From positions 10,712 through 74,711 of the forward strand of contig CAVPND010000052.1 of the NCBI GenBank assembly GCA_963706055.1: a DNA stretch of 64,000 bases, read 5' to 3'. The translations under genes and the position numbers were made by a program. Below, one piece after another: positions 1 through 64,000 of the stretch. Below the pieces are notes generated by a model. That model was not told where the DNA came from. It ran no database searches and worked only from the letters and a program-made list of their open reading frames with translations. The first letter of the stretch is position 1. Each line of letters begins with the position of its first letter. This DNA is from an uncultured Ignavibacteriales bacterium (GTDB lineage Bacteria > Bacteroidota > Ignavibacteria > Ignavibacteriales > Ignavibacteriaceae).

Positions 1-253
1 GAACAAAATTACAAAAACCAGGCGATTCATCGCCTTCCACAAATATCTGCGGATTAGTAAAAAAACCTGATTCAAAGTATAACGCAAAATCAGCATTACC
101 AAGATAAAGATCATTCGTTCCTGTTCTTGTCAGATATATATCAAACAAGAAGTCTGTTCCTACTACCTGCTGATTCTCAATTGTTAGGTCTGCACTTACC
201 TGCGCAAAGGTTAAACTTCCAAGTAATATTAGAATTAAAAATATCTTATTCAT
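1..253 (-). CDS. hypothetical secreted protein, N-terminal 84 codons (gene continues past left edge)
   Basis: Own minus-strand translation. ATG at 253 gives MNKIFLILILLGSLTFAQVSADLTIENQQVVGTDFLFDIYLTRTGTNDLYLGNADFALYFESGFF..., open to base 1. N-terminus looks like a signal peptide. Absent from the ORF track because no stop lies in the window. Confidence 0.5.
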   Translation of the reverse strand, partial: MNKIFLILILLGSLTFAQVSADLTIENQQVVGTDFLFDIYLTRTGTNDLYLGNADFALYFESGFFTNPQIFVEGDESPGFCNFV

Positions 254-929
254 TTTCATTTACTCCTGATGTTTTTACAGTTGATAGTTTATCGGTTAAA
301 GTCGGAACCTGAGTAGTTGTGTTCCTGTTGTTCCACACAGCACTTCTATCAGCGGCATTAACGGTACCGCTTAAGTCCACATCCGTTCCATAATAACCTG
401 AAAGATTTCTCTGGTTCCAGGCATTACTTCTGTCTGCGGCATTAACTGTTCCGCTTCCGTCTGTATCTGCGGTAAAGATTCCGAAGTATCCACCACCTAA
501 ATTCTTTAGTGCATTTGTTCCGTATGCTTTGGTTAAATCCGTACGCATATCATACAAAGCAGGACTAAAGTTAATCCCAACTTTATTTGCTGTCATAACC
601 GGCAGATGATTTCTATGTTTTATCACAACATAGTATTCTCCTTCCGGTGTTGATGGAAATTTTATGTTGCTTGTTCCATCCAGATCCACCAGTGTTCCAT
701 CATTCTTAAGAAATGCTGCTCTTGTTTCAACTACTGTTGTTTCGCTGCTTCTTAGTTCAACAAGAACCCAATCAACAATGTTTTGAGGCATTGAAGCCAC
801 ACTTTCTGTTCCAGTGTAGTTCCAGGGACTTGTGTTATATGGCTGATTAAGAGGAATAAGATTTGATGAATTAAGGAACGTACTCATCTGTCCGCCAACA
901 TAACTTCCCTCAAGAAACACTTTTGACAT
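246..929 (-). CDS. C-terminal fragment of large FG-GAP surface protein: KVFLEGSY..VDWVLVELR module plus two dockerin-like Ca-binding repeats
   Basis: ORF track 227 aa with no signal peptide. Starts 20 nt inside the end of 910..2181, shifted by one base. Repeats DTDGSGTVNAADRS and DVDLSGTVNAADRS; HRNHLPVM module typical of FCB surface proteins. Confidence 0.6.
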   Translation of the reverse strand: MSKVFLEGSYVGGQMSTFLNSSNLIPLNQPYNTSPWNYTGTESVASMPQNIVDWVLVELRSSETTVVETRAAFLKNDGTLVDLDGTSNIKFPSTPEGEYYVVIKHRNHLPVMTANKVGINFSPALYDMRTDLTKAYGTNALKNLGGGYFGIFTADTDGSGTVNAADRSNAWNQRNLSGYYGTDVDLSGTVNAADRSAVWNNRNTTTQVPTLTDKLSTVKTSGVNENE

Positions 930-2181
930 TAGCAGAAAGTACAGCCTCTATATTATCAGAAGAAAATAGGCTTCCATTGTTATGTATATCATAAGCAGAT
1001 ATATAGTAATAGGAATTGCCTGCAAGAGGAGAATTATCAATAAATGTTGTTTCTGTTGTTGTTCCTATAAGTGTTAAGTCTTCAGCCGCAGGTGTATCGC
1101 TTCTGTAGATGTAATAATCTCTTAAATCCGGCTCTGTGTTTTCCTGCCATCCCAGGTTTACGCTGGCACCATTAAGCTGGGCATAAAAATTACCAGGAGG
1201 TAACGGGGCAAGGTTATCTATGCTGTGTCCATATATTATGTTTGAGTACCATCTTTCATCTGCGTTTGTGCCCCTGGCAATTACTCTAAAATAAAAAGTA
1301 CCACTTGAGTTTGAAAATGAATCTGATGGTGTTGGTGATACAAAAGAATATTGAGGTTCTCTTATTGCCGGAATACTTGTAACATAATCCCACACAAAGC
1401 CGGATTGTCCGGGCGGATCGCTTCTTTGAAGTATGTACTCTGAAACGCGGTTCTGTCCTTCAATATCATAAGAACTGCGGTTCCATCTTACTCTTACAAA
1501 ACCGCCCTGGTCATTTGGTATGTCTTTAATTGATAGTACGCTTGGTTTTACAGTTGGAGTGGATGATAAATACAAATATGCACTTCCAGCATATTCCCCT
1601 CCGGTATTATTACCAGGGGCACCAATCATCACGTCGGATAACCCGTCTCCGTTTACATCCCCGACTGAAGAAACAGATGCACCAAAAGAATTCAGAATAT
1701 TCGTCCCCTCGTTAAAGATAACATCTGCGCCATTATTCATATTTACCCCACCAAAATATATGAATGCTCTTCCCGTCCACATATTCATGGGGGCACCAAC
1801 AATTACATCGGCATACCCATCATCATTTACATCTTCGGCAGTAGAAACCGACCAACCTAATAGATCACCAGCAGCTTCACCTGTTAAAATTACGTTTGCA
1901 CTGCTATTCATACTTATACCGCCATAATATATATATGCTCTGCCAGCTTCGGTTCCGCCGGCACCATTTTTCGGGGCACCAATAATTACGTCATCAAAAC
2001 CATCACCATTTACATCTCCTGCAGTAGAAACTGAGGAACCAAATTCATCACTGACTGAAGCGCCGGTTAATATTACATCAGCGAAGTTGTCCATATTCAT
2101 TCCGCCGAAATAAATCAACGCTTGCACCATTTGATCCTGGTATAAATGTACCAACAACAATATCGGAGTAACCATCACCAT
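910..2181 (-). CDS. middle fragment of the same protein: FG-GAP repeats then fibronectin-III-like region
   Basis: 423 aa. Continues the FGxSVSxxGDVNGDGxxDVxxGAP...YIYFGG units of 2078..4291 after a one-base frame change near 2125-2150, then an FN3-like stretch LAPLPPGNFYAQLNGASVNLGWQENTEPDLRDYYIYRS. Confidence 0.65.
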   Translation of the reverse strand: MVMVTPILLLVHLYQDQMVQALIYFGGMNMDNFADVILTGASVSDEFGSSVSTAGDVNGDGFDDVIIGAPKNGAGGTEAGRAYIYYGGISMNSSANVILTGEAAGDLLGWSVSTAEDVNDDGYADVIVGAPMNMWTGRAFIYFGGVNMNNGADVIFNEGTNILNSFGASVSSVGDVNGDGLSDVMIGAPGNNTGGEYAGSAYLYLSSTPTVKPSVLSIKDIPNDQGGFVRVRWNRSSYDIEGQNRVSEYILQRSDPPGQSGFVWDYVTSIPAIREPQYSFVSPTPSDSFSNSSGTFYFRVIARGTNADERWYSNIIYGHSIDNLAPLPPGNFYAQLNGASVNLGWQENTEPDLRDYYIYRSDTPAAEDLTLIGTTTETTFIDNSPLAGNSYYYISAYDIHNNGSLFSSDNIEAVLSANVKSVS

Positions 2182-63203: not shown

Positions 63204-63536
63204 TTAATCAGTTAGTTTAGTATAAAGTTTTTTTAATGTGTTAAAAGATTTTTCAAAAGTATTTTCTTTGCTTAAAGAAATAGGGTTCTTAAATCCTTTT
63301 GGATAGTACCTCCAGTGTACTTTTGAGTACATGTTTGCACATTTTTTTGTGTGGTTAATCATATACTCAACCGGATCAGGCTCGCTGTTATTAACAAGAT
63401 ATAACTCAATTTCCCAGAGAACTTCAGAAAATATTTCTTTTAAGGTATCTGAATCTTCTGTGCTATCCAGCAGAAACTCAACAATAAAATTATTAGTTGT
63501 CTCCGATTCCAATGCGTGCAACCGGTCTTGGATCAT
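63204..63536 (-). CDS. hypothetical protein
   Basis: 110 aa, acidic N-terminal half, no recognisable motif. Codon usage looks like that of its neighbours. Confidence 0.45.
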   Translation of the reverse strand: MIQDRLHALESETTNNFIVEFLLDSTEDSDTLKEIFSEVLWEIELYLVNNSEPDPVEYMINHTKKCANMYSKVHWRYYPKGFKNPISLSKENTFEKSFNTLKKLYTKLTD

Positions 63537-63604
63537 AACCGTACTTTAATTCAAAGTACCTGTTTTGCAGATTAACTTTACCGGGCTGCCAGATCCATAA
63601 ATCC

Positions 63605-64000
63605 TTAATCATTTTTGTTGCTCAATTTTCTGAATGGATGTGCTTCTGTATTAAAAACAAACTTTGTTAAGTCCAGTGTTTCTTCAGATGCAAAAATTAA
63701 GTAGAGATATTTTAAAGTTTCGGCTAAATAAAAGCTTTCCATTGAATCCATTTTTTCTTTGCTCATAACATTTTTCAAGGAGGCGTAACCTTCATCAACT
63801 TTACAGTATTTAATAATGCTATCAAAAAATGTTTTTCCCATTGCCACATATTTTGGATTCTTTGTCTTCCTGTAAAGATAAAAAGCAGATTCAATAATTT
63901 CTGGCCGCAAAATATAGTAAGGTGCTGTAACTTCAAATGTCCTATAATTAATTTCCTCCGGCTCAATGCCAAAGTGTTTCCACATTCTGTAACAGCTTTT
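63605..64000 (-). CDS. glycoside hydrolase family 47 (class I alpha-1,2-mannosidase), C-terminal part; gene continues past right edge
   Basis: YYILRPEIIESAFYLYRKTKNPKYVAMG...DSMESFYLAETLKYLYLIFASEE..LDLTKFVFNTEAHPF matches the GH47 C-terminal signature (YILRPE..ES..YLY / MESFFL.ETLKYL.LLF / VFNTEAHP). The frame is open upstream of the track Met (KSCYR-MWKH..). Confidence 0.85.
   Translation of the reverse strand, partial: KSCYRMWKHFGIEPEEINYRTFEVTAPYYILRPEIIESAFYLYRKTKNPKYVAMGKTFFDSIIKYCKVDEGYASLKNVMSKEKMDSMESFYLAETLKYLYLIFASEETLDLTKFVFNTEAHPFRKLSNKND

Follow-up and report, generated by a model that had tools for sequence, protein, structure and literature searches.

Have the conserved genes of an uncultured bacterium been inactivated by a wave of small insertions, are their broken frames read through by the ribosome, or do the breaks exist only in the assembled sequence? 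The stretch of DNA analysed here (the window; 64,000 nt, positions 10,712-74,711, forward, of contig CAVPND010000052.1 in assembly GCA_963706055.1) raises this question. It belongs to a metagenome-assembled genome of an uncultured Ignavibacteriales bacterium (Ignavibacteriaceae; bin size 4.07 Mb). A first-pass annotation had counted about 25-30 frame breaks in ten genes, almost all of them one extra base, and had attributed them to a consensus or sequencing artefact in genes that are probably intact in vivo. We called the breaks with our own frameshift-aware protein-to-DNA alignment against intact orthologues, taken from the syntenic relative G014, from a sister strain and, for the M16 peptidase, from a 90%-identical homologue. 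The pattern is real and stronger than described: 33 breaks in 11 genes, made up of 31 single-base insertions and 2 breaks of net -1 (p = 1.3e-7, sign test). The genes and their breaks are as follows.

249-4309, minus strand: FG-GAP repeat protein, two insertions (about 2125 and about 924), leaving three ORFs
4486-6667, minus strand: IYAQ-repeat protein with a T9SS tail, seven insertions (5803, 5790, 5582, 5548, 5355, 5279, 5260)
6761-7361, plus strand: ECF sigma factor, one insertion near 6890
7376-8181, plus strand: anti-sigma factor, a net -1 (or +2) break at about 8090-8093
8293-11340, minus strand: TPR-CHAT protein, three insertions (8538, 8432, 8407)
11487-14479, minus strand: LTD-CotH protein, two insertions (about 12694-12700, and 12081)
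15217-15857, plus strand: RibD_C-domain protein, one missing base at about 15304
15874-16771, plus strand: double-VOC protein, one insertion near 16105
42177-45198, plus strand: TonB-dependent receptor, one extra C at 44097 (GGA-CTTG-GGA)
58801-61606, plus strand: M16 (insulinase) peptidase, 13 one-base insertions (58825, 59645, 59781, 59803, 59840, 59913, 60157, 60221, 60687, 61129, 61223, 61380, 61492)
63213-63618, minus strand: small conserved gene, one extra base at 63493; this gene was not in the earlier list

Two or three breaks had been taken for missing bases. The one at 15304 stands; the possible one near 8090 is ambiguous, with either one base missing or two extra; the one near 5790 proved to be two insertions 13 nt apart. 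The emphasis on homopolymers holds for about one third of the insertions, which are homopolymer-like, and fails for the TonB receptor: there the extra C at 44097 breaks the frame, outside the A5 run (44103-44107) named earlier.

Apart from the breaks, the genes look healthy. After frame correction no in-frame stop is left in any of the 11 genes under the frameshift-aware alignment, and we found neither substitution decay nor raised divergence downstream of the first lesion, in agreement with the earlier remark that the fragments show no decay. The orthologue comparison proposed at that time found the genes intact in all relatives examined. The FG-GAP protein aligns to residues 1-1343 of the unbroken protein in G014, with +1 events at two points and no stop, and the corrected IYAQ-repeat protein shares 92% amino acid identity with that of G014, the codons flanking each break being identical. 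Intact orthologues of the ECF sigma factor (195 aa in G014, 199 aa in the sister strain) and of the TPR-CHAT protein (1028 and 1023 aa, respectively) are present in both genomes, and the anti-sigma gene of the sister strain is intact at 262 aa. The corrected LTD-CotH protein has 997 aa and is 92% identical to an intact 997-aa protein of the sister strain; its orthologues are also unbroken in G015, G016 and G018. Orthologues of the RibD_C protein (G014 and G015) and the double-VOC protein (G014, G015 and G016) are unbroken as well. The M16 peptidase, the most heavily hit gene, yields 930 aa at 90.4% identity to an intact 931-aa homologue, with 13 insertions and 0 stops; its identity to G014 (78%) lies inside the range of its intact neighbours (76-88%). 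Other long genes had been described as clean, and indeed the 1265-aa ORF, polB (774 aa) and the kinase (733 aa) are of unchanged length in the sister strain.

The breaks are not confined to the window. Comparing the bin with G014 over 637 pairs of orthologues, which span 754 kb of coding sequence, we counted 172 '+1' and 35 '-1' events, 207 in all, and 15 stops; 105 of the pairs (16%) are broken in the bin. The reciprocal control on G014 DNA gave 6 '+1' events in 406 kb. Error density is over-dispersed, with a 17-fold difference between large contigs. As rpoB and rpoC are missing from the bin, leuS and cysS served as the test of essential genes: each is split by two insertions, and no further copy of either turned up when the bin was searched. 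Since these are the only copies, they cannot be real pseudogenes. The breaks are therefore assembly-wide and reach essential single-copy genes; they are not restricted to dispensable ones.

The bin also bears the signature of a long-read consensus. Hardly any homopolymer reaches 10 bases, and runs of at least 12 bases number 0.5 per Mb, whereas G014 has 22.5 per Mb. Contig ends overlap as haplotigs with 98-99% identity between the members of a pair, and there are duplicates among the tRNAs. By CheckM the bin, in 63 contigs, is 85% complete and 5.75% contaminated.

A sister strain, represented by two independent assemblies (L090 and L091; ENA ERZ27315057 and JGI 3300040971) that match 31 kb of the window, provides the most direct comparison. 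It is a different strain (0.8% of sites differ, and gene content differs). Positions 32177-55201 equal both assemblies at 99.2% identity, and the sole gap in these 23 kb is the C at 44097; both read GGA-TTG-GGA there and encode an intact 1007-aa protein. Over 27167-58769 there are, besides 44097, zero coding 1-bp indels that interrupt a gene; a further 1-bp gap lies at 58757, 12 nt ahead of a gene's stop. The extra base at 63493 is likewise missing in the sister strain, which is 96.6% identical at that locus. A same-allele comparison is thus possible at 2 of the 33 breaks (44097 and 63493), and the extra base is missing at both. For the other 31 there is no same-allele assembly, the best matches being 90% (M16) and 83% (CotH), and the case against the extra bases there is indirect. 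Exact look-ups of two intact proteins of the left island gave no match and the CotH search returned nothing above 83%, and so the 1-20 kb island is without a same-allele comparator. The sigma, anti-sigma, TPR-CHAT, CotH and TonB genes are all intact in the sister strain; the M16 gene is missing from it and from most species in the genus. Breaks of this kind occur genome-wide and are not peculiar to the window. Within it, 31 of the 33 fall in segments, 25.4 kb in all, that have 80% identity to the sister strain or are missing there (p = 7e-11). This clustering fits poorly polished, strain-specific segments and is compatible with the locally poor coverage suggested earlier.

Considering the genome-wide bias, the breakage of leuS and cysS, the sister-strain assemblies, the intact orthologues and the homopolymer and haplotig signature, we are highly confident that the frame breaks in the window are errors of the assembled consensus, of a nanopore-like kind and drawn from a population of several closely related strains, and not mutations in the organism. 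It follows that the eleven affected genes are most likely intact in vivo, and the breaks are almost certainly not a real biological feature of the organism. On this reading the consensus holds roughly one spurious extra base for every 4 kb of coding DNA across the genome, and the errors accumulate where co-occurring strains differ: in alleles that have diverged and in genes found in one strain only, the M16 peptidase and the 1-20 kb island being examples. In such segments fewer or conflicting reads may stand behind the consensus, causing polishing to fail. Some insertions may be two alternative spellings of a variable site that were both retained, the clearest case being Leu CTN versus TTR giving CTTA or CTTG.

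This pattern resembles known indel errors in long-read, above all nanopore, consensus sequences of genomes and metagenome-assembled genomes: a gene is cut into neighbouring ORFs whose products add up to one conserved protein, the damage is genome-wide, CheckM completeness is lowered and long homopolymers are truncated. Such consensus errors are worse where localized heterogeneity within a population hampers polishing (proovframe preprint 10.1101/2021.08.23.457338; PMC9262707). Nanopore consensus errors are, however, usually described as homopolymer indels (PMC9262707), and a bias that is restricted to insertions and lies outside homopolymers is thus out of the ordinary; here insertions prevail 5:1 and lie mostly outside long homopolymers, and one fifth of them turn a Leu codon into an in-phase CTTA or CTTG.

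The Leu signature bears on the cause of the errors. In-frame CTT[AG] at Leu codons accounts for 34 of the 172 insertions and is seen on the coding strand only, whatever the genomic strand. The wider first-position-synonymous, Leu-holding class, mostly CTTA/CTTG, comprises 38 of 172, against 2% in a simulated null (Fisher p = 6e-17). In recG there are three CTTR-type sites, at which 15 related contigs read CTT, CTA, TTA, CTC or TTG. We propose to read CTTA/CTTG not as recoding but as the product of a consensus step that merged two Leu spellings; merging synonymous variants in this way can yield errors that seem aware of the reading frame. Two other accounts of the insertions were given up. The first held that the extra base often matches the relative's wobble base (27 of 39 cases), but an insertion just before the wobble base looks identical. 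The second was a basecalling error at CTTR due to methylation or sequence context; there is no longer shared motif and no reverse-complement peak, and the sites occur only in phase.

Strain polymorphism might also be uninvolved, the artefact being real but made of random long-read insertion errors in segments of low coverage. We regard this as a possible, though rather unlikely, account. It draws on the insertions outside the Leu class (homopolymer-like, wobble-adjacent and other), whose contexts differ little from randomly placed insertions in simulation; the wobble-adjacent class is at chance (24% vs 24%). It is also in keeping with the contig-to-contig variation in error density and with the absence of M16 from the sister strain, so that M16 reads would stem only from a sub-population. 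Random errors are nevertheless blind to the reading frame and would not place CTT[AG] in phase at Leu on the coding strand 34 times, nor lift the Leu-holding class so far above its simulated expectation.

The main import of the finding is for data quality. This species-representative genome holds roughly a thousand spurious one-base insertions, and about one gene in six is split. Gene calls built on it will be wrong, as will pseudogene counts, estimates of completeness and pangenome analyses; the damage is greatest in strain-variable islands.

Genuine pseudogenes, from an insertion-biased wave of inactivation in the lineage, are a far less probable explanation, and we consider it very unlikely. 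The breaks are present in the deposited sequence, and many of the affected window genes encode proteins that are accessory, secreted or exposed at the surface and might be dispensable. Frameshifts that interrupt conserved genes are also what reductive evolution produces. Its pseudogenes, though, show deletion bias, nonsense mutations and faster substitution and spare essential single-copy genes, none of which is true here. The only copies of leuS and cysS and 16% of the tested genes are broken in the same manner; M16, with its 13 frameshifts, has no stop; and the sister strain lacks the insertion at 44097. Spontaneous bacterial mutation is deletion-biased, and the 5:1 excess of insertions runs in the opposite direction.

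Finally, the extra bases might be real, with ribosomes passing over them at CUU-A/G (Leu) and at further slippery sites, by +1 frameshifting or by quadruplet decoding. Programmed +1 frameshifting is known from prfB (CUU-UGA-C) and yeast Ty1 (CUU-AGG-C), and suppressor tRNAs of the sufD and sufJ type exist. The most enriched site, CUU-A/G, lets peptidyl-tRNA-Leu re-pair from CUU to UUA or UUG, the slip of the Ty1 frameshift, and CTTA/CTTG, confined to the coding strand, falls in phase where Leu is conserved. The details speak against it. No slow or stop codon follows the site and no stimulatory following codon is shared; no suppressor tRNA, such as one with an 8-nt anticodon loop, was found, the 40 tRNAs detected in this 85% complete bin all having three-base anticodons and none a four-base one. 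The sites are not conserved even in the 99%-identical strain: it reads TTG where the window has CTTG, 15 relatives show normal Leu triplets at the three recG sites, and the same-genus relative G014 is free of such sites. Among 196,000 codons of intact genes there are 1272 cases of in-frame CTT with A next to it, and these genes would be wrecked if CUUA were decoded efficiently; the depletion of the pair in frame is modest (23% vs 34%), as expected from general T|A avoidance. About 80% of the insertions sit in other, diverse contexts, so hundreds of diverse sites, including some in essential genes, would have to be recoded, and 1-bp differences occur in non-coding DNA too. Recoding as a whole is barely conceivable, and equally so is the narrower idea that in-phase CTTA/CTTG at Leu codons is real and tolerated through efficient +1 re-pairing of tRNA-Leu (CUU to UUA/UUG) or through a quadruplet-reading tRNA in the missing 15% of the genome; were that so, the bacterium would use +1 recoding on a wide scale.

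To return to the consensus errors, we know of no earlier description of an in-phase CTTA/CTTG Leu signature among them; it should be useful as a diagnostic and should not be mistaken for recoding. There was no evidence of a shared pipeline artefact at the few loci examined in G015, G005 and G004, three bins chosen because they are contiguous and yet no more than 85-88% complete; these loci are clean.

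The frame breaks in the window are almost certainly an assembly artefact, and their biological interest is low. Two of the 33 break sites (44097 and 63493) are directly contradicted by independent sequence, and the case for the others is made through a genome-wide argument. The artefact interpretation offered by the first-pass annotation is supported by the genome-wide bias, by broken essential genes and by the sequence of a sister strain, a 99.2%-identical strain from independent assemblies.

A protein-to-DNA aligner (our own code), which permits one-base skips and one-base gaps, was run with intact proteins of the same-genus relative G014, sister-strain proteins and a 90%-identical M16 homologue as queries. 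This frameshift-aware alignment gives 31 events of one extra base relative to the orthologue (+1 events) and 2 net -1 events, spread over 11 genes. All ten genes listed as broken by the first-pass annotation were recovered, together with a small eleventh gene absent from that list (63213-63618, minus strand). The M16 gene carries 13 insertions within 2.8 kb and the IYAQ protein gene 7 within 550 bp; a base reported as missing near 5790 is actually two insertions spaced 13 nt apart, and the anti-sigma break near 8090 fits either -1 or +2 in the alignment. After frame correction, none of the 11 genes contains an in-frame stop, and M16 (930 aa; homologues 931 aa) and CotH (997 aa) have family-typical lengths. 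G014 is syntenic with the entire window, and the orthologue comparison that had been recommended finds every orthologue there intact; the long ORFs described as clean are indeed unbroken, with lengths equal to those in the sister strain.

With the frame-corrected TonB receptor as query, an intact 1007-aa protein of 99% identity was found on contigs of ENA ERZ27315057 and ERZ27315058 and JGI 3300040971; the ENA contig names ('k141_') are in the style of a short-read assembler. Two sister-strain contigs, L090 and L091, show 176 mismatches to window 32177-55201 and 117 mismatches to 35589-49185, respectively, and exactly one gap, identical in both: the C at 44097, where the window reads GGA-CTTG-GGA and both contigs read GGA-TTG-GGA. 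The extra base at 63493 is missing from the sister strain within a segment of 96.6% identity (61652-63999). Across 27167-58769, the remaining 1-bp differences lie in intergenic homopolymers, except one at 58757, 12 nt upstream of the stop codon of a 568-aa gene. The sigma (199 aa), anti-sigma (262 aa), TPR-CHAT (1023 aa), CotH (997 aa) and TonB (1007 aa) proteins are intact in the sister strain. For the left island and M16, the closest database matches are 83% and 90%, with no same-allele assembly for either.

Compared with the sister strain, the window divides as follows:
1-6023, nothing alignable
6024-14539, 80% identity only
14540-20006, absent
20007-24628, 96% identity
24629-27166, other sequence in its place
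27167-58769, about 99% identity
58770-61651 (M16), absent
61652-63999, 96.6% identity

Divergent and absent segments total 25.4 kb and contain 31 of the 33 breaks; the other 2 lie in the 38.6-kb core of at least 96% identity (p = 7e-11). M16 is also missing in most species of the genus.

The bias extends through the bin in which the window occupies C52:10712-74711 (G000; 4.07 Mb, 63 contigs, about 33% G+C; CheckM completeness 85%, contamination 5.75%). The names that databases give to close homologues assign it to the Ignavibacteria/Ignavibacteriaceae. With 891 ORFs from 1.29 Mb of one G014 contig, C13, as queries, 637 unique orthologous loci were located in G000, covering 754 kb of coding sequence. 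They carry 172 +1 and 35 -1 events plus 15 stops, and 105 genes (16%) are affected; in many cases a -1 event is in fact a pair of insertions close together. In the reciprocal control (G000 ORFs on G014 DNA), there were only 6 +1 events in 406 kb, and its 20 -1 events mirror the insertions of G000 itself. Large contigs differ in event density (0.4-6.8 per 10 kb), with C52, the window's contig, the worst of them, and events per gene are over-dispersed (6 genes with at least 5 events vs 0.07 expected). Genes with 8-12 insertions each, at G000:C22:172400-173400 and C15:64500-67100, form hot spots resembling M16.

The bin is a mix of strains, possibly with a second related species besides. Haplotig pairs of 98-99% identity and duplicated tRNA-Gly(ccc), tRNA-Thr(cgt) and tRNA-Leu(cag) indicate that several strains are present. 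About 140 kb occurs twice at 86-99% identity, for example:
C22:132210-142532, also in C55
C14:1-9802, also in C7
C24, also in C41
C5, also in C12

Neither rpoB nor rpoC is present in the bin, and homopolymers of at least 10 bases are nearly absent, a nanopore-like consensus trait. Indels are the usual residual nanopore error (PMC9262707), and localized intra-population heterogeneity is a named cause of unpolishable long-read data (10.1101/2021.08.23.457338). We propose that strain-specific or strain-divergent segments would receive lower or conflicting read support and would stay poorly polished.

Among the 172 insertions, 34 yield CTTA or CTTG exactly at the orthologue's Leu position, all 34 in phase and on the coding strand only, whatever the genomic strand of the gene; the reverse complement of the motif gives no peak. 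When 600 random insertions were simulated as a null model and run through the same aligner, the class containing these events made up 2%, vs 22% observed (Fisher p = 6e-17), and the other classes were near random expectation. A 'wobble' argument, part of the earlier evidence, was dropped, as its class stands at the simulated random level. Since the insertions respect the reading frame, the driver is either selection-shaped variation or translation. The three sites of this kind in recG are occupied by ordinary Leu codons (CTT, CTA, CTC, TTA, TTG) in 15 related contigs; the sister-strain codon at 44097 is TTG, and one internal haplotig pair likewise differs (CTTA vs TTA). These variant spellings suggest that two versions of a variable Leu codon may have been merged at the consensus step.

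Translation, in the form of +1 recoding at CTTA/CTTG, could also respect the frame, but was rejected on tRNA, codon-pair, context and conservation evidence: no tRNA with a four-base anticodon was found in the 85%-complete bin, intact genes carry 1272 in-frame CTT-A pairs, four fifths of the insertions lie in other contexts, the sites share no stimulatory next codon, and they are unconserved in the 99%-identical strain and in relatives. True gene inactivation is ruled out as a general explanation by the absence of nonsense mutations and by the leucine--tRNA ligase and cysteine--tRNA ligase genes, which match NCBIfam equivalog models, are each split into three frames by two insertions, and have no second copy in a search of the bin; no organism can do without both enzymes.

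Several further differences from the sister strain and G014 were noted. The M16 gene is flanked by a 569-aa AMP-binding gene on one side and a 192-aa gene on the other; 6 nt separate these two in the sister strain. The 5.4-kb block at 14540-20006, absent there, comprises six genes, three of them VOC, RibD_C and double VOC, and at 24629-27166 a 704-aa T9SS-tailed gene takes the place of a 511-aa PMT-family gene. Across 1-14539, identity to the sister strain is only about 80%; 85-1245 and 3772-7524 are 86-94% identical to G014, another species, vs roughly 79% elsewhere. Region 1-14539 may therefore be an island of genes for surface and secreted proteins that was recombined or exchanged. The IYAQ/T9SS gene (4486-6667) resembles a fusion of the N-terminal part of one G014 gene (585 aa) with the C-terminal part of the adjacent one (372 aa, 98% identical), and may reflect a real deletion between paralogues or an assembly-collapsed repeat. 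Relative to the sister strain, an 18-bp insertion at 32097-32114, in the polB/DUF1684 intergenic region, makes an inverted repeat, and an Ivy-family gene carries an in-frame 21-bp tandem duplication at 24219-24239.
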